Assembly (NCBI GenBank): GCA_021739625.1 | Contig: JAIPBJ010000006.1 | Location: 5,334-69,333, forward strand | From: Flavobacteriales bacterium | GTDB taxonomy: Bacteria; Bacteroidota; Bacteroidia; UBA10329 | DNA: 64,000 nucleotides | Reading direction: 5' to 3' | Part shown: positions 11,340 to 63,475 of the stretch, one piece after another | How the letters are laid out: every line of letters starts with the position of its first letter | Numbering within the stretch: position 1 is the first letter of the stretch | Notes under the pieces: generated by a model | Told to the model about the DNA's origin: nothing | Databases searched by the model: none | Seen by the model: the letters and a program-made list of their open reading frames with translations, nothing else | Program-made: the position numbers and the translations under genes

Positions 11340-12905
11340 TCACTCCCCTTTCAAAAGTCGAGCGCCCCCGTGCAGGATGTGCCATGCACTGCCCTGTCTG
11401 GTCCTGAGCGTGCGCTCTTTCACTGACTTGGAATAGATCCAACGCACAGAGGCACGGTCAGCTACGAGTTCAAGCAGCATGAACCCATGGTCCATCAGAT
11501 TGGCGTAGCGCACGTGCGGATTGCGTTTGCGGGCCTTGATGTAGCCGGCAGCAAACTTTGCGGCAAATTTCCCGATCTGCTCATCAAGATTGGTGGATGA
11601 GATGCTTGGCGTGACGAATTCGGCACCCACCACCCCTTTCCCTGCCTTGCGGTCATAGACCGTGGGGTCATGTGGGTCGCGGGCCAGCTCAATGCCCCAT
11701 GCGGTGTGAATGTCGCCCGTTATGACTATCAGGTCACGTATGCCATGCGCCTGAAGGGTGTCGAAAATGCGGTCACGGTTTGTGGGATACCCGTCCCAGC
11801 CGTCCATGTTGCGCTGTCTTTCCTTAGCATGTTTCCCGAAATCCATCGGAGAGAACATCACATTGTTGCCCAGGATCTTCCACCGTGCCTGCGAGGTTCT
11901 CAATCCAGTGGTGAGCCAATCGGTCTGCCCCTCGCCCAACATGCTGCGCGAAGGGTCGAACCGGGCAGGGTCCTTGAAATCCTCAATGGGCGGGGTACGC
12001 CCTTCCATTCGGCCATCGATCATGAACAGATCGGCCAGGCCACCATAGTTGAAGCTGCGGACGATGGACTGCTTTTCGGGATTCTCCACCGGCAACCATT
12101 CGAAGTAGGCCCTCTTTGCCGCCAACCTGCGCGCATTCCACTCGCAGACCTTGGGGTCGTGCCTCGGTGCCCCTTGAGCGTAGCAATTGTTGGCAATCTC
12201 GTGGTCGTCCCAGATGACGATGAACGGGTGCAGCCGGTGCAATTCCAACAGGTCGGGGTCGAGACGGTACTGCGCATATCGGCTGCGGTAGTCGCTGAGG
12301 GTCAGAATCTCGTAGGGAGGAATATGCCCTCTTCCGATCGCGCCCTGCGTCCCGTTCTCATATATATAGTCGCCAAGGTGAATGACAGCATCAATGTCTG
12401 GCTGTTGGGCGATCAGACCATAAGCATTGAAATATCCTGCGGGATAGTTGGAACAGCTTGCCACGGCAAATCGCAGGCGGTCGGGATTATCGGGGGCTGT
12501 GCGCGTTCTACCTGTAGGAGAGATTCCTTCTCCGGTCTTGAAACGATAATAATAGGTGGTCCCGGCCTTGAGTCCGGTGGCCGACAGGTGTACTGTGAAG
12601 GCCGATGATGAATCTGTGCGCACAGTGCCCGAACCCACCACTTCAGTAAGATTGGTATCGGTGGCTATGGCCCAATCGACCTCCACGCTGCTGCCAATTT
12701 GCGTTGGCACCACTTTGGTCCACAGCACTACCCTGTCCTGACGCGGGTCGCCAGAGGCCACTCCGAACGGGAATTTCTCTCCCTCGTCAAGCCGTTCCAT
12801 TATTCCCTGATGGAAAATGGACTGGCCTGTGCAGCTCAAGGACGCGCCCACCATCAGCACAAATGCCACCCATTTCATCTGTTCACAATTATGACCCTGG
12901 TCCAC
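11340..12905 (-). CDS. phoD: Alkaline phosphatase D family (PhoD-like metallophosphatase) with signal peptide
   Basis: Signal peptide; PhoD N-terminal domain followed by metallophosphatase motifs (IHLGDYIYE...WDDHE...GDIH). Confidence 0.75.
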   Translation of the reverse strand: MDQGHNCEQMKWVAFVLMVGASLSCTGQSIFHQGIMERLDEGEKFPFGVASGDPRQDRVVLWTKVVPTQIGSSVEVDWAIATDTNLTEVVGSGTVRTDSSSAFTVHLSATGLKAGTTYYYRFKTGEGISPTGRTRTAPDNPDRLRFAVASCSNYPAGYFNAYGLIAQQPDIDAVIHLGDYIYENGTQGAIGRGHIPPYEILTLSDYRSRYAQYRLDPDLLELHRLHPFIVIWDDHEIANNCYAQGAPRHDPKVCEWNARRLAAKRAYFEWLPVENPEKQSIVRSFNYGGLADLFMIDGRMEGRTPPIEDFKDPARFDPSRSMLGEGQTDWLTTGLRTSQARWKILGNNVMFSPMDFGKHAKERQRNMDGWDGYPTNRDRIFDTLQAHGIRDLIVITGDIHTAWGIELARDPHDPTVYDRKAGKGVVGAEFVTPSISSTNLDEQIGKFAAKFAAGYIKARKRNPHVRYANLMDHGFMLLELVADRASVRWIYSKSVKERTLRTRQGSAWHILHGGARLLKGE

Positions 12906-12987
12906 CGACCTGCACGAATTCAGTGGAATTCCTTTCGCCCTGTCCCTTACATCTTATGCCTTACGCCTTATCCCTTACGCCTTCACT

Positions 12988-15507
12988 CTAAAACTTCGCC
13001 ACCAGCTTCACATTCAACTGTCGCGATGTGAGGTAGTTCGGCACAGCATATTGGCGGTTGGTGATATCAGAGATCCAAAGGTAGGACAGCGTATTGTTGG
13101 TTCCCAGCAGGTTGAACACCTCCAGACTCACCCACAGCGACTTGAGGTAGTGCAGCGGATTCTTCTTGGGAAACTCCTTCTTCTCGCCCTTTATCATGTA
13201 GGAGAAACCGATATCGACCCTGCGGTAGGGCGGAATGCGCAACGTGTCCTGATAGCGCTGGCTGTCGGGCGGACCAAAGGGCATGCCTGTGCCCAGCACC
13301 AGATTGAGGTGCATCTTGAGCATGGGCAGGCGCGGCACATAGTCCTGAAAGAAGAGGGAGAAGTTTACACGCTGGTCGGTGGGGCGCGGAATGTAGCCTG
13401 GCTCCACACGGGTGCTGTCCACCGGCACATTGTTCTCGGTGATACCGAACTGGATCTGCTCACCATCGGAGTTGTAATAGTTGTAATAGAAATCGTCCTT
13501 GATGTCCTCCTGCACGGTCATCACGCTCACGCTGGCCCACGACTCTATGCCCTTGACGAACTCACCGTTTATCTTCAGGTCGAGACCTGTGGCATAGCCC
13601 CTTGCGTTGTTGGTGGCGTAGTAGCGGATGCGCACGTTGTCGATCTCGTAGGGCACGATGTTGTCCAGATACTTGTAATAGACCTCGGCCACGAGCTTGA
13701 AAGGACGGCCCCAAGCGAAGAAATTGTAGTCGGTGCCGATGACCGCATGATAGGATTCCTGCGCTTTCAGGTTCTTGTTGAGCTGACCATTGAGGTCGCG
13801 CAGCTCGCGGTAGAAAGGCGGTTGATAGTACATGCCGCCCGACACGCGGAACACCACATCGCGCTTCCATCTGGGGTTGAAGGCATAGCTGGCGCGGGGC
13901 GTGGCGATGAACTGGCCGTTCACATCCCAATAGTTGAATCGGACACCGGCCGTCAGCGTGTGCTTCGAGGTGTCGGAGAACAGCCATGTGTTCTGCAAAT
14001 GGCCGGAGATGCGGTTGCTCTGAAGGCTGAGGTCGGTCTTCAGCACATTGGACAACGTAAGTTCATTCGGACTGAGCGGAATGCTGTAGCCCGATGAGTC
14101 GTTCATGTTCCATTCGTTCAGCTCATCGGTGATGTACTCGTGCTGATACTGGAGGCCCCAGTCCAGCTTACGGTGGCCGTCCAGCCAATGGCCGATGTGC
14201 TTCACTGTTCCCACATTCACCGTCAGGTAATTCCTTGCATGGTCGAGGAACGTGCCGATGCCCCTGTTGAAGGCCACCTCGCCCAGATTGTCGCTGCCGA
14301 AATTGTTGTCGAGCACCCCCAGCCAGTATTGGCCCTGCACATCGAAGGTCTCGCTCTCGTTGCTGCGATAGCCCGAGGCGATGAACTTGAAGCGCAACCG
14401 CTGATCGGGACGGTACTCGGCCGTGAGCGCGCCCGTCATCGTCTCGAACGTGTTCACCTCCTGCCCATCAAAGAACACAGTGAAGCGCAACGCCTCGCTG
14501 ATGGTGCCGAAATCGGTCTCGCGGTTCTCTGGGATGAAGCGGTACTGATTGAGCGAATAATGGCCAAGAAAACCGATGTCCCACTTGTCGTTCACCTCAT
14601 AATTGAGCAGCGCCTGCGCGTCCCAGAACTGTGGTTTGTACTGCCCGTCCGTGTCCAGACTGCCCAGCACATAAGAGTTGCTGCGATAGCGCAGACCGCC
14701 TATCCAAGAGAACCTGTATTCCTTGGTCGCCCCTTCCAAATGCAGCGCACCGCCCAGCAGACTGCCCGATGCGGTGGCCGCGAACGAGCGTGGCCTTCTG
14801 TATTTCACATCGAGCACAGAGGAGAGCTTGTCGCCATACTTGGCCTCGAACCCGCCTGCCGAAAAGCTGATGCCCTCCACCATGTCGGGGTTGATGAAGG
14901 TGAGTCCCTCCTGCTGCCCGCTGCGCACCAGGAACGGACGGTATATCTCCACATCGTTCACATAGATGAGGTTCTCGTCATAGTTGCCGCCCCGCACATT
15001 GTATTGCGAACTGAGCTCGTTGTTGCTGCTCACCCCGGGAAAGGTCTTGAGCAAAGCCTCGATGCCACCGCCTGCCGATGGAATGATGACGGCCATCTTG
15101 GGGTCGATGCGCTGCATGGTGCTTTTGCGGTTGCTCTCGTCAGATATGAGCACCTCGTCCACCACATTGTCCTTCAGTTTCAGGATGCGGTTCAGGGTGC
15201 GCACCTCCCCTGCTGCGAGGGTGATGTCGTAGCCCTGAGGCTGAAATCGGATGTGCGAGAACGACAGCCGCACCTGCTGCCCGGCAGGCACCTGCACATT
15301 GTAGGATCCGAGGCTGTCCGATGCCGTGCCGAAGCTCGTGCCAATCACCGCGATGCTCACATAAGGAATGCCCATGCCCTGCTCATCGCGCAGTTGGCCC
15401 TGCACTGTGGCGCGGTCCTGGGCTTGGGCCAATGGGGCGATGGCCGACAGCATCAGCACAAAGACCAATGGCCAGACGAGACGTGGCCTGCTGTTGCCGA
15501 AACCCAC
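12988..15507 (-). CDS. TonB-dependent outer-membrane receptor with N-terminal carboxypeptidase-regulatory-like domain; most likely GTG start at 15507
   Basis: GTG at 15507 precedes a canonical signal peptide (GFGNSRPRLVWPLVFVLMLSAIAPLAQA|QD). This is followed by a CarbopepD_reg domain, a plug domain, a long beta-barrel and a C-terminal aromatic residue (..LVAKF). The ORF-track ATG at 15807 would translate the 21-bp repeat array as an N-terminal extension ahead of the signal peptide, which is implausible. Confidence 0.8.
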   Translation of the reverse strand: MGFGNSRPRLVWPLVFVLMLSAIAPLAQAQDRATVQGQLRDEQGMGIPYVSIAVIGTSFGTASDSLGSYNVQVPAGQQVRLSFSHIRFQPQGYDITLAAGEVRTLNRILKLKDNVVDEVLISDESNRKSTMQRIDPKMAVIIPSAGGGIEALLKTFPGVSSNNELSSQYNVRGGNYDENLIYVNDVEIYRPFLVRSGQQEGLTFINPDMVEGISFSAGGFEAKYGDKLSSVLDVKYRRPRSFAATASGSLLGGALHLEGATKEYRFSWIGGLRYRSNSYVLGSLDTDGQYKPQFWDAQALLNYEVNDKWDIGFLGHYSLNQYRFIPENRETDFGTISEALRFTVFFDGQEVNTFETMTGALTAEYRPDQRLRFKFIASGYRSNESETFDVQGQYWLGVLDNNFGSDNLGEVAFNRGIGTFLDHARNYLTVNVGTVKHIGHWLDGHRKLDWGLQYQHEYITDELNEWNMNDSSGYSIPLSPNELTLSNVLKTDLSLQSNRISGHLQNTWLFSDTSKHTLTAGVRFNYWDVNGQFIATPRASYAFNPRWKRDVVFRVSGGMYYQPPFYRELRDLNGQLNKNLKAQESYHAVIGTDYNFFAWGRPFKLVAEVYYKYLDNIVPYEIDNVRIRYYATNNARGYATGLDLKINGEFVKGIESWASVSVMTVQEDIKDDFYYNYYNSDGEQIQFGITENNVPVDSTRVEPGYIPRPTDQRVNFSLFFQDYVPRLPMLKMHLNLVLGTGMPFGPPDSQRYQDTLRIPPYRRVDIGFSYMIKGEKKEFPKKNPLHYLKSLWVSLEVFNLLGTNNTLSYLWISDITNRQYAVPNYLTSRQLNVKLVAKF

Positions 15508-15754
15508 CGATGGTCCGTGGATGCCCACCGATGGTCCGTGGAGGCCCACCGATGGTCCGGGGATGTCTACCAGTGATCCGTGGAGGCCCACCGATGATCC
15601 GTGGAGGTCCACCGATGGTCCGTAGAGGTCCACCGATGGTCCGTGGATGTCCACCGATGGTCCGTGGAGGTCCACCGATGGTCCGTGGATGTCCACCGAT
15701 GGTCCGTGGAGGCCCACCGATGATCCGTGGAGGTCCACCGATGGTCCGGGGATG
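15503..15754. repeat. Tandem array R1: 12 copies of a 21-bp unit (consensus CCACCGATGGTCCGTGGATGT), intergenic, abutting the receptor start codon
   Basis: Direct reading: 12 head-to-tail 21-mers with a few point differences (GGATG/GGAGG alternation), open in several frames on both strands. Confidence 0.9.
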
Positions 15755-15810
15755 TCTACCGGTGTGCGGTCTGCGTCATAGAGATCAAGGCGTGCAACTT
15801 TCCTCACCGC

Positions 15811-16524
15811 TCAGTCCTTCTTCTCTCTACGTTTGAACTCCCCATTCTTCCACGCTTTGATGAACCGAGCCCATGCCAGCGGGTTCAGCAGGTTGTTGGG
15901 CGGGAGCTGCCCGGCATAGTAGAGCCTTGCCGCGTGCTGCTGCATGGCATATTTGAAGTTCTCGCTGCCGTCCATGCCCATGGCATCGGCCCGCTCGCGC
16001 ATCTCGAACCACTCCAGATTGCGCATGGCCACCTGCTTGTCGTCCTCGGGCAGACGCAGGTCGAGGAATGCCTGTCTGAACTGCTCCTTGGTGGGCCATG
16101 GATAGACCACCGCCTCCTGAAGCAGGAAAGTGTCGGCACTCATCATCTGAATGAGAGAATAATTGCGGCTGTTCAGCGTGTCGGGAATCACGAACTCGCT
16201 GTCCTTGAAGCCCAGATACGAGAACACGATGGTGTCGAACGGCTCTGCCACGAACGAGAAATAGCCGAAATAGTCGCTGATGGTGCCCCTTCGCGAATTC
16301 TTGACAATGATGTTGGCGAAAGGAACCGCCTCAAGACTGTCGGCCGTGAGCAGCACGCCCGAGAACTGGATGAGCCTGCGCTGATCCTTGGGAACCTCCT
16401 TGTTCTGGCCCACCGCCTGCGTTGCGGACAGCACTGTGAGAAGGATGAGCAGCAGGAACGGGGAATGTATGATGGGTCTCATGGGGCGCGGACGATAACG
16501 TGAACTGAGGGCGGATATTTCCAT
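15811..16524 (-). CDS. Carboxypeptidase-regulatory-like domain protein (signal peptide; probable start at ATG 16482)
   Basis: Signal peptide MRPIIHSPFLLLILLTVLSATQAVGQ; CarbopepD_reg-like beta-sandwich pattern (FSGVLLTADSLEAVPFANIIVKNSRRGTISDYFGYFSF). Confidence 0.55.
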   Translation of the reverse strand: MEISALSSRYRPRPMRPIIHSPFLLLILLTVLSATQAVGQNKEVPKDQRRLIQFSGVLLTADSLEAVPFANIIVKNSRRGTISDYFGYFSFVAEPFDTIVFSYLGFKDSEFVIPDTLNSRNYSLIQMMSADTFLLQEAVVYPWPTKEQFRQAFLDLRLPEDDKQVAMRNLEWFEMRERADAMGMDGSENFKYAMQQHAARLYYAGQLPPNNLLNPLAWARFIKAWKNGEFKRREKKD

Positions 16525-16533
16525 TCGCCCCGA

Positions 16534-17064
16534 TTATTTATTGATGTAACCGTTCAGCACCTCTAAGATGCTCATGTAAAGATCTTCGGCCTCAGAGATC
16601 TCCAATTCCGAAATGGCATCCTTGAAACGGTGGATCTCCTCGGTCAGCGTAAGCTGGTCTTCAAACCCGTCCCAGTTCTCGATGATGGTGAGCACTTCCA
16701 GCACCTCCATATAATCGCCCAGCAGCGCCACATTGAGGAACACCGGCAGGCGGTGCGAAGTGTCGAGCCCGCATTGCCAGCAGGCCGCCAGCATCTGCAC
16801 ACGCACCGGTTCGAACCTCGGGTCCATAAGGTGGTCGATCATCACATTCAGGGCCTCGGCATCTTTCAGGTCGAAAAGGGTGAGGGCGATGGCACTGGCC
16901 GCCTCCATGTCGTCCGTAGTGGCAAGCACTGTGAGCAAGTCGGGAATGAGGGTGGCATCGCCCTGGGCCTTCACCTTGGCGATGGCCCCCGCAACCTTCC
17001 GCCCATCACCGCTGTTGAGCTGCGCGATGAGCTGCTCGCGTTCTGTCTGGTTCAAGTCTGGCAT
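16534..17064 (-). CDS. HEAT-repeat-like hypothetical protein
   Basis: Helical repeat pattern (LIPDLLTVLATTDD..AIALTLFDLKDAEALNVMIDHLMDP); no other motif recognised. Confidence 0.45.
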   Translation of the reverse strand: MPDLNQTEREQLIAQLNSGDGRKVAGAIAKVKAQGDATLIPDLLTVLATTDDMEAASAIALTLFDLKDAEALNVMIDHLMDPRFEPVRVQMLAACWQCGLDTSHRLPVFLNVALLGDYMEVLEVLTIIENWDGFEDQLTLTEEIHRFKDAISELEISEAEDLYMSILEVLNGYINK

Positions 17065-41507: not shown

Positions 41508-41675
41508 TTCATCAGAATGAGGTTTTCCTTCATCAGAATGGAGAATTCCTTCATCAAAAATCAGAATTCCTTCATCAGAATCGAAAATTCCTTCATCAAA
41601 AATCAGAATTCCTTCATCAGAATGGAGAATTCCTTCATCAGAATGGAGCATTCCTTCATCAGAACCCTCAGATCT
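41508..41675. repeat. Tandem array R2: 8 copies of a 21-bp unit (consensus TTCATCAGAATGGAGAATTCC) in the convergent gap between nosY and the outer-membrane gene
   Basis: Direct reading of 8 head-to-tail 21-mers with internal variants (AATGGAG / AAAATCA / AATCGAA); begins 19 nt after the nosY stop and ends at the stop codon of the minus-strand gene. Confidence 0.9.
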
Positions 41676-43785: not shown

Positions 43786-43872
43786 AGGGAAAATAGAAAA
43801 TTGAAAATTGAAAATCGTGGTTGCGTCACCTGTTCTGTGGACTATCGACCGTGGACTATGGACTCCCGACCC

Positions 43873-46583: not shown

Positions 46584-46838
46584 GCATAAGGCTCGCATAG
46601 CCTCGCGGTTCCTTTTTCCTGATGGTCGTTTTCGATGGTCGTTACTGATCGCCCTTGGCGGCAGTGGATGCCTTAACTTCAATATACAGAGGACTACGTA
46701 GGGCCGGTTCAATGCCCTGAATGTCCTTTGACCGTTGAAGGCCGGCCGGTCACACTGGCCTCCAAGGAATCCAGAAACCTTTCAAACGGGGCGGATCTGA
46801 AAAGCCAAACGAGTAGGGAACCCAAAGACCACATCATC

Positions 46839-48077
46839 ATGAACACAGTTTCTACACTCAAAAACCTTCCGATCGCACTGGTCCTGGGCCTCGCCCTTCT
46901 GCAATCGGCATCGGCCCAAACATGGACACTGATGGACGAGACCTTCACCCAGAGCATGAAGGAAATCGAATTCTTCGATGAGAACACAGGCATCGTAAGC
47001 CGGGGCTATGCCATGAACACGACCTCAGATGGCGGCACCTCATGGGGCAGCGACATCGATTTCACATGGACAGTGAACGCGCTCAAGTACACCGGGGGAT
47101 CCACCCTTTTTCTGGGCACCGGAAACGGCACGATCTTCAAATCTGTGGACGGTGGTGCCAACTGGTCTCAGATTGGAGGCTACATCGTCAGCGACATCCG
47201 CAGCATGGCCTTCAATGGGTCGAACGGCATTGTGGTGGACAACAACTGCAAGATCGCATGGACCAGCAATGGTGGCGACAGTTGGACTGCCATACCAAGC
47301 GATGACCTCTGCGGAAACCTGAGCCGCTTGGACCATGTGGACATGCCCTCCTCGACCGTGGCCTATGCGGGCGGAAACAACGGATACATGTTCAAGTCAA
47401 CGGACGGTGGTCAGACTTGGACGGCCATCACCTCACTGCCAGCAGAATTCGATGATATGAGCGGAATGTCGTTCCCGACCACCGAGGTGGGCTACATCAC
47501 CGGCAGCGTAATGAACGAGAATACGGCACTTGTGCTCAAGACCACCGATGGCGGTGCCAACTGGACGGACATCAGCGCTGGTCTGACCCAGAGCATATCG
47601 GACATCTTTGCAGTGAACGCCACCACAGTGTATGTGGGTGCAGGGGGCAACAAGATCTACAAGTCAACGGACGGAGGTGACAATTGGGCCGTGGATTATA
47701 CCCATCCTGTCTGCACGCAGTGCGCCATCAAGGAATTCGATCTGGGCGGCACCACGCTTTATGCCCTGTTCGACAACGGTGGAGAGCACAAGAAGATCGT
47801 GAAGCTGGCCAACGCCACGGTAGGGATCAACGACACACCGGACCAGAACACCTTCAGTGTCCGTCCCAACCCGAGCAATGGGATATTCAGCATCACTTTT
47901 CAAAAGGCCCCCGTACAACTGGATGTCTATGACGTTCTGGGCAATCTGTTGTTCTCAAAGGGAAACCTTTCCCTCACCAATGTTCAACTGGATCTGAGCC
48001 ATCTGTCCAAGGGCATTTATGTGATGAAGGCGTTCGATGGCACTGGCGCAAGCACGCAACGGTTGGTGATCGACTGA
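46839..48077 (+). CDS. Secreted BNR/Ycf48-like beta-propeller protein with T9SS type-A C-terminal sorting domain
   Basis: Signal peptide (LPIALVLGLALLQSASAQ); repeated S-x-D-G-G-x-(T/N)-W BNR motifs; C-terminal LDVYDVLGNLLF...KGIYVMKAFDGTGASTQRLVID CTD. Confidence 0.7.
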   Translation: MNTVSTLKNLPIALVLGLALLQSASAQTWTLMDETFTQSMKEIEFFDENTGIVSRGYAMNTTSDGGTSWGSDIDFTWTVNALKYTGGSTLFLGTGNGTIFKSVDGGANWSQIGGYIVSDIRSMAFNGSNGIVVDNNCKIAWTSNGGDSWTAIPSDDLCGNLSRLDHVDMPSSTVAYAGGNNGYMFKSTDGGQTWTAITSLPAEFDDMSGMSFPTTEVGYITGSVMNENTALVLKTTDGGANWTDISAGLTQSISDIFAVNATTVYVGAGGNKIYKSTDGGDNWAVDYTHPVCTQCAIKEFDLGGTTLYALFDNGGEHKKIVKLANATVGINDTPDQNTFSVRPNPSNGIFSITFQKAPVQLDVYDVLGNLLFSKGNLSLTNVQLDLSHLSKGIYVMKAFDGTGASTQRLVID

Positions 48078-50223: not shown

Positions 50224-50258
50224 GCATGGGTTCAAGGTTCAAGGTTCAAGGTTTGGGG

Positions 50259-52333: not shown

Positions 52334-52507
52334 GTGGCTAAAGGTAGCCAACGGGATGGGGGGAGAGGAGACCTGTTTCCCAGCGGAGACACATTCTCCA
52401 GCGGAGGGCTTTATGGAAAAGTGCCGACCCATGCCCTAAGGGCCGCTCCACATTGCTGTGGAACGGTTTTTTTTTGGTACTTGCCGATTCTTACAGTGAA
52501 ACCCTGT

Positions 52508-52738
52508 GATAGGAAATATGGAACACCTGATAGGAGAACTGAAACACCAAATAGGAGAAATGGAACACATGATAGGATATATGGAACATATAATAGGATG
52601 AACAGAACATCTGATAGGAGAAATAAAATGCCTGACAGGATACATGGAACATTTGATAGGATAAATGGAACATACGATAGGAAAGACTGAACATCTGATA
52701 AAAGAAATGGAACACACGTTAGGAGTGATAGAACAGAT
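52508..52738. repeat. Tandem array R3: 11 copies of a 21-bp unit (consensus GATAGGAGAAATGGAACATCT) in the divergent promoter region
   Basis: Direct reading of 11 head-to-tail 21-mers; AT-rich; lies between the start of the VWA gene (-) and the start of the hypothetical gene at 52820 (+). Confidence 0.9.
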
Positions 52739-53467: not shown

Positions 53468-53589
53468 TCGGGGCCGAGGAACGCGACAGGTATTGGAAGG
53501 TGATCGAGGGGAAGGTGGGGTGAGGGAGGCGTTGCCGCCCCGTCCACGTCCCTTCATAAAGGCTAATTTTGGCCGCAAGCAATAGCATC

Positions 53590-54825
53590 ATGGTCAACCG
53601 CATAGGCATAGGCAATTTCAAGTCGATCGACAAGCTGGAGTTCGAGCTTGGCCGCTTCAACGTGTTCATCGGTGAGAACGGCTGCGGAAAGAGCAACATC
53701 CTTGAGGCAATTGGGATGGGTGCTGCAGCGTCTGCCAATAAACTGGAGAATGAATTTCTGAGCAGTAGGGGCATTCGGGTTACCGATTCTCTTTACATGC
53801 GATCTGCTTTTTCTTCCAAAAACTCTGGGAAGGACATCAGCATTTCAATTCAGATTCGAGATATTGATGTGGAATGGTCGATTTCGAACGATAATCAACC
53901 GTACTCTTCATGGCAACAGGAAGCAGTTGTGAAAGATGGTGTCGATTCGTCCCCTGAAACTGAAGAACCATCCGAAGTTGACAGCCTATTGAAATCATGG
54001 AAGGCACTTGAGACGGACACCTACAATCTTTTAGTTGAAGAAAAAAAAACGGAAGATCCAACTCGTAAGAGAGAAATTGGAAAAGTTCTAAAGCGTGTGG
54101 AGGAATTCTTGCCTCGACTTCAGGAGACGTTTCAGCAAATAATTGCCAAGACGTTACACATACCCTTAGGGCAATTCCAGATTTACTCCCCTGAAAACTC
54201 GTCATTGAGGGCGTTTGAAAGAGAAGGCCAAATAGAGCCGTTGGGTCTCAAAGGCGAAGGGCTCTTCAAACTGCTTAAGACCTTTGCACACACAAATCCT
54301 GAAGCTATCCAACGGATCGCTGAGGAATTGCAGGTCTTCGATTGGTTTGAAAGCTTTCAGTTGCCAGACAAGACAATGTCGGACGAGCGGTACATCAAAG
54401 TGAAGGACCGCTTCCTTGATGATGCGCTGGATCAGTTCGACCAAAGGAGCACCAACGAGGGTTTCCTTTTCGTGCTCTTCTACCTCGCACTGTTTATCAG
54501 CAAGGACACGCCCAAGTTCTTCGCCATCGACAACATAGAGGCTTCGCTAAACCCTAAGCTGTGCAAGGAACTGATCGCCAAGCTCAACCGCCTTTCGGCA
54601 GAGAACAGCAAGCAGGTGATCATGACCACCCACAGCCCGGCCGTGCTCGATGGTCTCGACCTGACGGATGACGAACAGCGGCTGTTCGTGGTGTATCGCA
54701 ACAGTGAGGGGCGCACACGTGTAAGGCGGGTAGAGCCGCCCAAAGTGATGGCAGGCGAGGAGGAAGTGCCGCTGTCAGAGGCGTTCGTGCGCGGTTATCT
54801 CGGAGGCCTCCCTAAGAATTTCTGA
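53590..54825 (+). CDS. AAA_21-type ABC ATPase (OLD/PARIS AriA / AbiLi-like defence ATPase)
   Basis: Walker A GENGCGKSN, ABC-signature-like STNEGF, the AAA_21-diagnostic IDNIEASLNP block (variant of lIDEPEnsLHP) and TTHSP H-loop. A long inserted coiled-coil region lies between the N- and C-terminal halves. TAATTTTG promoter element at 53564-53571. GC is visibly lower than in the flanking genes. Confidence 0.75.
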   Translation: MVNRIGIGNFKSIDKLEFELGRFNVFIGENGCGKSNILEAIGMGAAASANKLENEFLSSRGIRVTDSLYMRSAFSSKNSGKDISISIQIRDIDVEWSISNDNQPYSSWQQEAVVKDGVDSSPETEEPSEVDSLLKSWKALETDTYNLLVEEKKTEDPTRKREIGKVLKRVEEFLPRLQETFQQIIAKTLHIPLGQFQIYSPENSSLRAFEREGQIEPLGLKGEGLFKLLKTFAHTNPEAIQRIAEELQVFDWFESFQLPDKTMSDERYIKVKDRFLDDALDQFDQRSTNEGFLFVLFYLALFISKDTPKFFAIDNIEASLNPKLCKELIAKLNRLSAENSKQVIMTTHSPAVLDGLDLTDDEQRLFVVYRNSEGRTRVRRVEPPKVMAGEEEVPLSEAFVRGYLGGLPKNF

Positions 54826-54828
54826 GCG

Positions 54829-55497
54829 GTGGCAAGGGTGTTCGGCATCATAGCAGAAGGACCGAGTGACATTGCTGTCATCCGGAACATCCTGACAGGC
54901 TATTTCTCAGACCCCGACCTTGAGTTGACCGAGATTCAGCCTGTGAAAAAACAGCCCAGTGGAGAGTATGAGGCGGGCGGCTGGAATCAGGTGCTGGCCT
55001 GCTGCGCCTCTGACCGCCTGCGCGGTGCCTTCCAGTACAATGAAGCAGTGATCATTCAGATAGACACCGATGTCTGTGAAGAGAAGGGCTACGATGTGTC
55101 CAAGCGGGGCGAGAAGGACAAGGTTGTGATGCCTGAGGAACTTATTCTCCGTGTGGAGGAGAAACTGTCCGCCCTCATCGGTACGGAGGTGATGGAGAAG
55201 TTCACTGACCGTATTTTGTTTGCGGTGTGCGTAGATGAACTGGAATGCTGGCTGCTACCGTTGTATTATACCGATAGGAAGAAATCCAAGACTACTGGAT
55301 GCCTGTCCACGCTCAATCAGGCTCTCGGGAAAAAGGAGGATTTCACCATTGATGTGAACAAGAAGAACCACCGATACTACGAGGTCATCTCTGAGCCATA
55401 CCGCAAGAAGCGAAAGGTATTGATGGCTGCCGCTGAGCAGAATGCGAGTTTCAAGGTTTTCATGGACAGGTTGAGCGCGAGGTTCGAAATGCCTTGA
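54829..55497 (+). CDS. TOPRIM-like (OLD-family / DUF4276-DUF4435-like) putative nuclease partner of the ATPase
   Basis: GTG start 4 nt after the ATPase stop (translational coupling). N-terminal IAEGPSD (conserved Glu) and IQIDTDVCEE (DxD) match the TOPRIM catalytic motifs of OLD-family nucleases. 222 aa. Confidence 0.5.
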   Translation: MARVFGIIAEGPSDIAVIRNILTGYFSDPDLELTEIQPVKKQPSGEYEAGGWNQVLACCASDRLRGAFQYNEAVIIQIDTDVCEEKGYDVSKRGEKDKVVMPEELILRVEEKLSALIGTEVMEKFTDRILFAVCVDELECWLLPLYYTDRKKSKTTGCLSTLNQALGKKEDFTIDVNKKNHRYYEVISEPYRKKRKVLMAAAEQNASFKVFMDRLSARFEMP

Positions 55498-56100: not shown

Positions 56101-56181
56101 GGTGGACAGAGGCTTCATGGCTGTTCACCGTTCACCCCCTGATTCCTGAACCGTTCCCGCCCAGCCCCTACTTTTGCCGCC

Positions 56182-59540: not shown

Positions 59541-59616
59541 CGAGGTTCCGAGTTCAAAGTTTAAGGTTCGAGAGCGAGTCAACTTTGAACCTTGAACTCT
59601 GAACCTTGAACTACTT
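59541..59616. repeat. Palindromic TTGAACC-heptad repeat element in a convergent intergenic gap (likely bidirectional terminator)
   Basis: GTTCGAGGTTCCGAGTTCAAAGTT...AACTTTGAACCTTGAACTCTGAACCTTGAAC: inverted copies of the GTTCAAAGTT / AACTTTGAAC motif able to form a long hairpin between two convergent genes. Confidence 0.6.
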
Positions 59617-60111: not shown

Positions 60112-60120
60112 ATTGATAAA

Positions 60121-60152
60121 GGGACGAGGGACGAAGGACAAGGGACGAGAGG
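60121..60152. repeat. 31-nt GGGACGA-heptad element, copy A (GGGACGAGGGACGAAGGACAAGGGACGAGAGG)
   Basis: Near-identical (one mismatch) to copy B at 63242-63273. Confidence 0.85.
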
Positions 60153-60204
60153 CTTATACCTCATCAGCCCAACTTTGAACCTTGAACATTAAACTTTGAA
60201 CCCT

Positions 60205-60531
60205 TTACATAAAACCAAGTTCCAACAGTGCCGCCTCACTCATCATGTCCTTGTCCCATGGCGGGTCGAAGGTCAGTTGCACCTTGCCGGAAGTAATGCC
60301 AGGAACAGCCCGTACTTTCTCTTCCACTTCCTGCGGCATGCTTTCGGCCACTGGGCACGAAGGCGATGTGAGGGTCATCAGCACCTTGGCGTTCAGTTCA
60401 TCATCCACTTTCACTTCATAGATGAGGCCCAGCTCGTAGATGTCCACAGGAATCTCCGGGTCATAGACCGTGCGCAGCACATCAATGATGCGCTCTTCCA
60501 GTTTCTTGCGTTCTTCAGTCGTGGCGTTCAT
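60205..60531 (-). CDS. sufT: Fe-S assembly DUF59/MIP18-family protein (SufT-like)
   Basis: DUF59 pattern DPEIPVDIYELGLIYEV...LTSPSCPVAE; suf operon context. Confidence 0.75.
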   Translation of the reverse strand: MNATTEERKKLEERIIDVLRTVYDPEIPVDIYELGLIYEVKVDDELNAKVLMTLTSPSCPVAESMPQEVEEKVRAVPGITSGKVQLTFDPPWDKDMMSEAALLELGFM

Positions 60532-62218: not shown

Positions 62219-63475
62219 CTATTCCATTCCGGATAAACGTGATTGGATCTTTTCTTCTAATACCGCCCGAAGGCCCTCATCACTCACTTGCACCAACACA
62301 TCTGAGGCAAATGCAGTCAGCAACAACGCAATCGCTCCTTTGTGCGAAAGTCCACGCGAACGGAGGTAGAACACCGCGTCTTCGTCCAACTGCCCCGTTG
62401 TGCTGCCGTGGCTGCATTTCACATCATCGGCATAGATCTCCAACTCTGGTTTGGAGTTCATGGTGGCGGTGTCGCTCAGCAGGATGTTCTTGTTCTGCTG
62501 ATAGGCATTGGTCTTCTGAGCATCGCGGTGCACATGCACTTTGCCGTTGAACACACCAGTTGCTTTTCCAGAGAGAAGACCCTTGTAAACCTCATTGCTC
62601 TGGCAGTTCGGCACAAGATGATCCACCAGCGTATGGTTGTCATACAGGTCGTTACCATCGATCATATAGAACCCATTGAGGTGTGCCTCGGCATTCTGAC
62701 CAGTAATGCGCACGTTGGTGTTGTTGCGGATCAATTTTCCGCTCAATTGCACCGTATTGGTGGTGAAACGGCCATCGCGTTCTACATTCACTTCGGTGGT
62801 GTTCACCAGATTTCCAGTGCCTATTTCTTGCAGAAAATTCAGTTCCAACGAAGCATTAGCACCGATGAAAGCCTCTGTGACATGATTCACCAATGAGCTG
62901 TCAGAAATGGCTGTCCCATGGAAATGATGCACGCAATTCAGCTTAGCGCCATCTTCCAGTACAATGAGGATGCGTGAATTGAAAAGCTCTGATCCAGTGG
63001 CACTGACACTATGGTCGATGAGCAGTGATTGCGCGAGTTGTGCGTTCTTTTTCACTTGGATGATCAGCACATCTGTGAACAGGACTGTGTTCAACGCGGC
63101 CAATTCCTGCTTGCCATGAATACCGCTCTTTCCAATGAATCGATTCAACTCACCTGCATCAGAAAACAGACTGAACGTCACGCCATCCAGCGTTGGGAAA
63201 TTCTTGCTGACCGAAGAATTCGTGAGCTGAACTGCTGGACTGGGGACGAGGGACGAAGGACGAGGGACGAGAGTTTCAGCCGATGAAGAAGATGCCAACC
63301 CGTTATCAAAGAGCCGCTTGATGTTGGTGTATTTCCAATCCTCATGACGCTTGCTCGGAATTCCTTTCTCACGGAGAAACGATGCCGCTTCCTCTCGAAT
63401 GGCAAAAAGGCTGTCTGAGGGCATGGCCTCAAGCAGATGCCCAAGAACTTCAGTAGTCTCTTTCAGAATACTCAT
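62219..63475 (-). CDS. sufD: Fe-S cluster assembly protein SufD, carrying an in-frame insertion derived from the GGGACGA repeat element
   Basis: SufD N-terminal EDWKYTNI motif and C-terminal beta-helix core; overlaps the sufC stop by 4 nt. Confidence 0.85.
63242..63273. repeat. 31-nt GGGACGA-heptad element, copy B (GGGACGAGGGACGAAGGACGAGGGACGAGAG), inside the sufD coding sequence
   Basis: One mismatch relative to copy A; encodes ..[13 protein letters not shown].. in the SufD N-terminal domain. Confidence 0.85.

Follow-up and report, generated by a model that had tools for sequence, protein, structure and literature searches.

A 21-bp minisatellite at the start of a TonB-dependent receptor gene in a Flavobacteriales genome

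Tandem repeats next to bacterial gene starts

Among the long simple repeats of prokaryotes, those with a heptanucleotide unit are the most frequent (PMC4679880), and lineage-specific heptamer arrays adjoining start codons have been described in Beggiatoaceae, cyanobacteria and some Flavobacteriia, the equivalent spacers of close relatives being shorter and free of repeats (MacGregor 2015, PMC4679880, summarising Mrazek et al. 2007). The present analysis concerns a tandem array of 21-bp units that abuts the start of a TonB-dependent receptor gene in a Flavobacteriales bacterium (GenBank assembly GCA_021739625.1, contig JAIPBJ010000006.1, positions 5,334 to 69,333 of the forward strand; this whole stretch of 64,000 nucleotides is hereafter called the window, and all positions refer to it unless another locus is named). 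This array resembles the intergenic heptamer arrays and variable-number tandem repeats (VNTRs) in being head-to-tail and spacer-free, in lying against a start codon, in having repeat-free counterparts in relatives and in being one of many arrays in its genome. It differs from the heptamer arrays (PMC4679880) in its unit, which is 21 bp long with a GC content of 65%, shows no heptamer substructure, takes in the start codon and has no closed frame. The array would take its place as a new example of the broad class of intergenic VNTRs and long simple repeats, and not as a new protein domain.

A comparable position is occupied by mycobacterial interspersed repetitive units, known as MIRUs, summarised as repeats located at start codons within operon-like gene strings, where their frame, open in the direction of the neighbouring genes, spares translation of the downstream gene (PMC12548453); of the systems compared, these are the ones that the array would most resemble in its way of working. 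The array shares this position, lying between a CarbopepD-like gene and the receptor gene of the same strand, with the favoured receptor start (the GTG at 15507) contained in its last unit. MIRUs, which are 46-101 bp long, are nevertheless dispersed and coupled to their genes by -4 overlaps, whereas the array is a single locus, made of 21-bp units and fused in frame to the gene that follows.

In Haemophilus influenzae, the (ATCTTTC)n repeats of hmw1A and hmw2A are situated between promoter and start codon, in the 5' untranslated region, and transcribed as part of the leader, their copy number grading expression (PMC12721329). The array likewise precedes the start of a gene for a surface protein, its role as a leader being predicted from sequence; unlike the 7-bp hmw units, which form a long hairpin cleaved by RNase III, its 21-bp units fold no better than shuffled sequence (z = -0.93). 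The hgp genes of the same species, which encode phase-variable TonB-dependent receptors, carry CCAA repeats in their 5' coding region, and the array resembles them in its location, close to the signal-peptide region at the 5' end of a gene for an outer-membrane receptor. The hgp units, however, are not a multiple of three and act as on/off switches by frameshifting, while a 21-bp unit never shifts the frame. The BrickBuilt element of Porphyromonas gingivalis consists of a 23-nt minisatellite carried by a MITE (miniature inverted-repeat transposable element), with leader and tail subunits, inverted-repeat ends and 19 copies per genome (PMC4596501). Both BrickBuilt and the array are intergenic minisatellites of Bacteroidota with about two helical turns per unit, but the array has no leader or tail subunits, no inverted-repeat ends and no further copies in the window.

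The array ahead of the receptor gene

The array appears to be a young, lineage-specific minisatellite of the VNTR type, lodged in a short spacer of a conserved gene string, and it most likely grew from the start region of the receptor gene itself, an origin suggested by the presence of the GTG at 15507 in its last partial unit. The long open reading frame (ORF) drawn through the array (12988-15807, minus strand) has 939 amino acids (aa), and its homologues carry the name TonB-dependent receptor; the 100 extra residues at its N-terminus are not part of the conserved receptor, whose signal peptide starts at the downstream edge of the array. The corresponding features are the following.

15496 to 15768, minus strand: 21-bp minisatellite of 13 in-register units, u0 to u12 (Tandem Repeats Finder and in-register reading)
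15505 to 15507, minus strand: GTG, the favoured receptor start and last in-frame GTG, inside the final partial unit (sequence reading)
15421 to 15507, minus strand: signal-peptide coding region of 29 codons, ending in AQA and followed by the conserved mature N-terminus QDRATVQG (sequence reading)
12988 to 15507, minus strand: TonB-dependent receptor, 839 aa from the GTG at 15507, with CarboxypepD_reg, Plug and barrel (domain matches, homologues)
15805 to 15807, minus strand: GTG, first possible start of the 939-aa ORF, in frame and 3 nt past the upstream TGA (sequence reading; present also in the relatives L001 and L012)

An earlier, sequence-only reading of this DNA had recognised a tandem array flanked, on the same strand, by a CarbopepD-like gene and the gene of a TonB-dependent receptor, and both Tandem Repeats Finder (TRF) and the domain matches agree with it. 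The 12 units that it located at 15503-15754 do belong to a 21-bp array, but this extent was slightly short upstream, since 13 units can be followed over 15496-15768. The core reported by TRF covers 15504-15761 (period 21, 12.3 copies, 87% matches, no indels), and its score of 383 is the highest among the arrays of the window. Read in register from 15768 down to 15496, the array comprises a degenerate first unit, 11 full units and a last unit that merges into the signal-peptide codons. Its units follow each other head to tail, have a length within the 10-100 bp of minisatellites, are highly identical and leave no spacers between them. In the window, the sense-strand unit GGACCATCGGTGGACCTCCAC finds 10 matches when up to 3 mismatches are allowed, against an expectation of 0.01, every one within the array and none outside it.

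The order of the units retains traces of how the array was formed. Three units match the consensus exactly, u7u8 repeats the 42-bp block u1u2 without change, and the variant GGTAGACATCCCC is common to u0 and u9; the identical block and the repeated variants indicate that both blocks and single units were duplicated as the array grew. The alternation of GGATG and GGAGG variants (ATC and CTC on the sense strand), which had been noticed before, is real but irregular. The last unit, u12, reads GGACCATCGGTGGGTTTCGGC and has its first 14 bases in common with u11, after which it continues as signal-peptide codons. Each unit is composed of GGACCATCGGT followed by GGACCTCCAC, and this composition explains why the autocorrelation of the array, besides its maximum at lag 21 (0.88), has secondary peaks of 0.42-0.43 at lags 10 and 11, where chance would give 0.27. 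Lags 7 and 14 are at background (0.23), by which an origin from heptamers was ruled out.

The array has a GC content of 65% (60-64% for the array region), versus 35-38% in the other arrays, which would fit an origin in a coding start region and not in ordinary spacer DNA. Moreover, 13 of the 82 GGWCC sites of the window are concentrated within the 273-bp array, at about 44 times the background density, and an array rich in this motif within a genome depleted of it is consistent with a young age.

The gene string that harbours the array (HEAT-CarbopepD-receptor-PhoD) is kept in L001 and L012, the genomes closest to the window (90% aa identity). The window and its relatives were compared by the number of nucleotides that separate the upstream stop codon from the codon of the conserved mature N-terminus ([AG]T[VLI]), with the following results.

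Window: 399 nt
L001: 126 nt
L012: 126 nt
L004: 101 nt
L006: 108 nt
L005: 145 nt

The excess of the window over L001 and L012 amounts to 273 nt, that is, exactly 13 x 21, in a flanking segment that is otherwise unalignable. TRF detected no array in L001-L003 and none at the receptor spacer of L012. The spacers of the relatives measure 35-78 nt and are followed by N-terminal signal peptides of about 19-29 residues. In four of them (L004, L006, L005 and L087) there is little or no doubt about the start, and the signal peptide lies at the N-terminus; in L087 (82% identity), for example, the likely start is a TTG about 74 nt past the stop codon, giving MRASLTIILLCCSMGLMAQ. In L004, L005 and L087 the receptor frame differs from the frame of the upstream gene, and a 7-nt indel distinguishes the spacer of L004 from that of L006, which indicates that the spacer is non-coding in this branch. 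The array is thus an insertion specific to the lineage of the window, being present in none of the relatives examined. A 30-nt degenerate repeat pattern had no match in 596 Gb of genome contigs or in metagenome contigs. When the spacer and signal-peptide DNA was compared with that of the relatives, it proved too diverged for a meaningful alignment and the ancestral seed was not found; a heptamer, GCCTCCA, that it has in common with L001 is within chance. As a side remark, the records of L005 (GC 43%) and L012 (GC 55%) are labelled Chryseobacterium, yet both the identity of their receptors and their synteny place them among unclassified Flavobacteriales metagenome-assembled genomes, so that the labels are probably wrong.

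The homologues also bear on whether the repeat is coding. When the 939-aa ORF is set against its 120 best homologues, these have 812-871 aa and cover 86-89% of it; none of the 120 has the N-terminal extension, and in their alignment ordinary signal peptides start 6-37 residues ahead of the conserved A-Q. A search among 5.8 billion proteins with the 100-aa extension returned two small repeat ORFs on contigs of 0.6-1.2 kb and nothing else, and in the one contig of the two that was read the DNA unit is a different one (GGGCCCTCCGTCGGCCTGAGA). When the full units are compared with the consensus, 15 of the 16 differences are non-synonymous and 1 is synonymous (9, 6 and 1 at the three codon positions), while about 27% synonymous differences would be expected at random; so high a proportion of amino acid changes argues against coding constraint on the repeat. 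Pfam over residues 24-64 gave only a match to PF21930 below threshold (E = 0.0098, 16 bits versus a cut-off of 27). A genuine N-terminal heptad-repeat domain was ruled out by the homologues, by the lack of real protein relatives and by the non-synonymous bias. The same three points, together with the short spacers of the relatives, uphold the opinion already expressed in the sequence-only reading that the 100-aa extension is illusory. That reading had also remarked that the receptor frame runs through the array without stop codons, which is true but uninformative, because the consensus unit is free of stops in all six frames and a plus-strand ORF (15321-15836) likewise spans the whole array.

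Start codon, origin and rival explanations

Translation from the GTG at 15507 gives MGFGNSRPRLVWPLVFVLMLSAIAPLAQA|QD, in which a charged n-region, a hydrophobic core of 17 residues and an A-x-A site can be read directly. A signal peptide of 29 residues is typical for the family, the N-termini of homologues lying at a comparable distance from the conserved AQ. This start had been proposed before as lying exactly at the array boundary; the signal peptide does start at the downstream edge, but its GTG is inside the last partial unit. The upstream start of the long ORF, taken at the time for an ATG at 15807, is in fact a GTG.

Several observations weigh against the start at 15507, and most of them favour instead the translation of the array, that is, a restart at the GTG at 15807 or at GTGs within the array, yielding a pre-protein lengthened by as many as 100 residues, (GPSVDLH)n. 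The GTG at 15807 follows the upstream TGA by only 3 nt, is in frame, and has a purine-rich context outside the GC-rich repeats, with the frame open from that stop onwards. L001 and L012 likewise have TGA-NNN-GTG followed by an open frame, and in the window as in these two genomes the receptor frame is closed upstream by the TGA of the preceding gene itself. In addition, the junction TGAGCGGTG (stop codon, GCG, GTG) at 15805-15813 recurs at 54823-54831, and may be a termination-reinitiation junction. The GC-rich context of the GTG at 15507, for its part, recurs ten times upstream, the array holding ten in-frame GTGs besides this one, and no sequence mark of preference distinguishes it. The receptor frame also scores best of the six by codon usage (0.15), a value between those of non-coding frames and of real genes (0.33 +/- 0.12), from a repeat of 7 codons only. 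The copy number of 13 comes from a single assembly, that of the window, the other available assembly breaking inside the array. It can be noted that the gene pair at 54823-54831 is an AAA-ATPase gene and a 222-aa ORF, that at 15805-15813 being the CarbopepD gene and the receptor ORF, and that both pairs are co-oriented.

If the array were translated, the hydrophobic segment would function as an internal signal, everything upstream of AQA|Q being cleaved off by signal peptidase, and the array would serve as an ORF for ribosome delivery, like those inside mycobacterial MIRUs, which at start codons contain coupled ORFs (PMC12548453). This interpretation has to face the absence of such an extension in every homologue, the relatives (L004, L006, L005 and L087) that start 35-76 nt after the stop with the signal peptide at the N-terminus, three of them (L004, L005 and L087) in a frame unlike that of the upstream gene, and the nearly exclusively non-synonymous differences between units. 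Openness in six frames implies that it was not selected in this one, and an acidic stretch of 100 residues in front of a Sec signal peptide would be atypical. Altogether, substantial translation through the array seems rather unlikely, and the array is probably an untranslated intercistronic leader. The mature receptor would be the same with either start, because the extra residues precede the signal-peptidase site.

In the model that we favour, with translation from the GTG at 15507, the seed of the array would be the 21 bp across the receptor start codon (about -9 to +12), which would have been duplicated first and then amplified by slipped-strand mispairing or unequal recombination, in blocks of one to several units. 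The product would be transcribed as a GC-rich intercistronic leader of about 300 nt on a read-through transcript (35-76 nt in the relatives). Its tolerance could be attributed to a unit that is 3n long and stop-free, that repeats the start codon and that lies ahead of a cleavable signal peptide: initiation at the GTG at 15807 or at the ten other GTGs within the array would merely lengthen a pre-sequence that signal peptidase removes. The effect would probably be near neutral; at most, translation of the receptor, and perhaps of PhoD, would be dampened or uncoupled from the upstream genes. Copy number would then exert graded control and not act as an on/off switch, since steps of 21 bp (7 codons) never shift the frame; a contingency locus of the frameshift type was discarded because the unit is divisible by three.

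Read-through from the HEAT and CarbopepD genes would be the simplest way in which the receptor gene is transcribed. Co-transcription of the four-gene string is plausible, because its genes lie on one strand, no terminator-like site was found on the minus strand within the spacer, the Bacteroidota -7 motif TAnnTTTG does not occur on the minus strand between 15507 and 17300, and the string is conserved in L001. Matches to sigma-70-type promoters were at chance level. In the window at large, 9 of the 18 occurrences of TAnnTTTG lie at most 150 nt upstream of ORF starts, often only 4-17 nt ahead of the ATG, a distance that makes very short or absent mRNA leaders probable for many genes; occurrences at 56169, 57685, 1312, 32383 and 5862 can be cited as examples. 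A structured RNA leader was rejected as well, the 391-nt region having a minimum free energy close to that of shuffled sequence (z = -0.93) and no Rfam match at E <= 1 or at the gathering score.

The array could alternatively act at the DNA level, as an operator- or iteron-like platform in which GGACC cores, placed every 10-11 bp on one face of the helix, would titrate or polymerise a regulator of the receptor or PhoD genes, such as a response regulator with direct repeats as its binding sites. The autocorrelation at lags 10 and 11, the division of each unit into GGACCATCGGT and GGACCTCCAC, the period of two helical turns that is common to unrelated arrays of the clade, and the presence of PhoD within the same gene string would all suit such a platform. 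Yet GGACC-N4-7-GGACC is found nowhere else in the 64 kb, for which reason a dispersed operator motif was rejected; relatives with the same gene string have neither the array nor a similar spacer motif; and the other 21-bp arrays are unrelated in sequence and lie in 3'-3' or other spacers. The surroundings are not those of a replication origin either, the array being flanked by HEAT, CarbopepD, receptor, PhoD and ArsR-type genes in a window otherwise made of housekeeping genes (YidC and SufBD among them); the period would fit iterons, but with no initiator gene and no AT-rich element nearby this candidate was dropped. A binding platform is, on these grounds, improbable. Even less probable, to the point of being hardly credible, is a mobile or dispersed element, namely a MITE-borne minisatellite of the BrickBuilt kind inserted upstream of the receptor gene. 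Minisatellites of 22-23 bp do occur in MITEs of Bacteroidota, always in intergenic positions (PMC4596501), and periods of 21-22 bp are common among the arrays of other Bacteroidota loci. However, neither terminal inverted repeats nor leader or tail subunits accompany the array (the only inverted-repeat pairs detected are elsewhere or weak, and none brackets it), no second copy of the unit exists in the window or in public genome or metagenome contigs, and the last unit grades into signal-peptide codons.

An assembly artefact, affecting the whole array or only its length, is very improbable too, even though repeats longer than a read are often mis-assembled and short-read assemblies commonly break at tandem repeats. 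The other assembly of the same strain, a Logan contig from run SRR12088350 (L084), is 100% identical to the window over 21752-15719 and ends 43 nt into the array, reproducing the junction and the first 1.3 units exactly. This independent contig confirms the upstream junction of the array, the copy number being outside its reach. Furthermore, the unit variants of the window are ordered, unlike a collapsed consensus, and the frame into the receptor is intact. Public data on the array come from one strain. Exact-protein look-up gave no record for the 237-aa call of the CarbopepD protein, for PhoD (521 or 512 aa) or for the receptor (839 or 939 aa), while the HEAT protein and the 223-aa CarbopepD call (the version called from 16482 in L084) both match one contig that ends inside the array.

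Gene callers will probably assign to this receptor a false N-terminus of 100 residues that masks its signal peptide, and similar misannotation is likely wherever stop-free arrays with a unit of 3n adjoin start codons. The array would provide a clean example of a minisatellite seeded by a start codon and tolerated in frame ahead of a cleavable signal peptide. Should its copy number vary in the population, it could offer a graded, frameshift-free tuning of the receptor and perhaps of PhoD. There is, in addition, a small chance that the locus represents something not yet described, either an in-frame translational "rheostat" derived from a start codon or a mechanism, peculiar to the clade, by which 21-bp (two-helical-turn) repeats are made or selected. 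In a rheostat, a dozen in-frame starts, eleven of them in near-identical repeat contexts, would precede a cleavable signal sequence, and the copy number would determine how many entry sites ribosomes find and how long the disposable pre-sequence is.

Neighbouring genes, other repeats and motif avoidance

The genes and spacers next to the array are listed below.

16534 to 17064, minus strand: HEAT-repeat gene, first of the same-strand string HEAT-CarbopepD-receptor-PhoD (domain match)
15811 to 16524, minus strand: CarbopepD_reg_2 gene, upstream of the array, with its TGA stop at 15811-15813 (domain match)
15769 to 15810, minus strand: spacer sequence without repeats, between the stop codon upstream and the array (identical in L084)
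12943 to 12983, no strand assigned: 7/14-bp tandem repeat filling the receptor-PhoD spacer (TRF)
11340 to 12878, minus strand: PhoD phosphatase gene, downstream of the receptor, with a likely start at ATG 12878 (domain match, sequence reading)

The spacer between the receptor and PhoD genes is the second one inflated by repeats in the same gene string, and in L001 these two genes abut. The PhoD ORF begins at a GTG (12905) in the mechanical list of ORFs, the ATG at 12878 being the more likely start, as it gives MKWVAFVLMVGASLSC, a signal peptide of the lipoprotein type.

Other 21-bp arrays occur in the window and in two of the relatives.

41508 to 41664: 21-bp array, unit approximately TTCCTTCATCAGAATGGAGAA, between two convergent genes
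52507 to 52735: 21-bp array, unit approximately TGATAGGAGAAATGGAACACC, upstream of a VWA-domain gene, overlapping only an ORF without family match
L004, 8558 to 8723: 21-bp array with an AT-rich unit, directly downstream of the orthologous receptor gene
L006, 3833 to 4051: 21-bp array with an AT-rich unit, directly downstream of the orthologous receptor gene

These four arrays have 7.5-10 copies and all lie in spacers; their units are AT-rich and unrelated in sequence to that of the array ahead of the receptor gene, and the units of the two located in the window are also unrelated to each other. Shorter arrays of 7 or 14 bp are found at 12943-12983, 43789-43815, 43837-43863, 50229-50253, 59581-59612, 60120-60149, 60171-60215 and 63243-63271. 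Their units include CCTTACG, GAAAATT, GGTTCAA, AACCTTG and AGGGACG, and they are mostly placed in spacers; one begins 4 nt upstream of an ORF start (43785), that at 63243-63271 is inside the SufBD ORF as drawn, and GGTTCAA/AACCTTG arrays occur at other loci too. In 11 of the 18 distinct arrays of the window the period is divisible by 7. In the clade, arrays of at least 80 bp always have a base period of 21 (four independent arrays, those of L004 and L006 counting as copies of one), while periods of 21, 22, 24, 25 and 27 are seen at other Bacteroidota loci. The array ahead of the receptor gene is one case of these genome-wide 21-bp and 7-/14-bp spacer repeats.

About 830 bp downstream of the array at 52507-52735, an ATPase gene of the AAA_15/AAA_21 type (AbiEii-like) and the 222-aa ORF mentioned above (53569-55497, plus strand) resemble a two-gene defence module. 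Elsewhere in the window, the DUF805 RNA motif of Rfam (RF03081) was recognised at 46759-46823 on the plus strand (57.3 bits, above the gathering score), just ahead of an ATG at about 46839, within an ORF drawn as 46728-48077.

The window is also devoid of the pentamer CGNCG, which has 0 matches when both strands are counted, whereas shuffled sequence leads one to expect 266 +/- 13, the related motifs CGCG (219) and CGNNCG (267) being present in normal numbers. The same count of zero was obtained in L001-L007, L012, L018, L084 and L087, with expectations of 15-66 each, and nearly all other Bacteroidota loci contain the motif at about the expected frequency. The CGNCG-free clade spans receptor identities of 55-90% and GC contents of 35-57%. 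In the window, none of the 35 Arg-Arg pairs is encoded as CGN-CGN, although CGN makes up 79% of the Arg codons. A full-text literature search on CGNCG returned nothing relevant. These counts suggest a clade-wide and absolute avoidance of CGNCG, a site that is perhaps the target of a conserved nuclease, and this absence, together with the 21-bp period shared by unrelated arrays of the clade, may be of greater interest than the array to those who study genome architecture. Three further motifs are under-represented in the window, namely GGWCC, with an observed/expected ratio (O/E) of 0.40 (z = -8), CCWGG (O/E 0.41) and CTAG (O/E 0.05).

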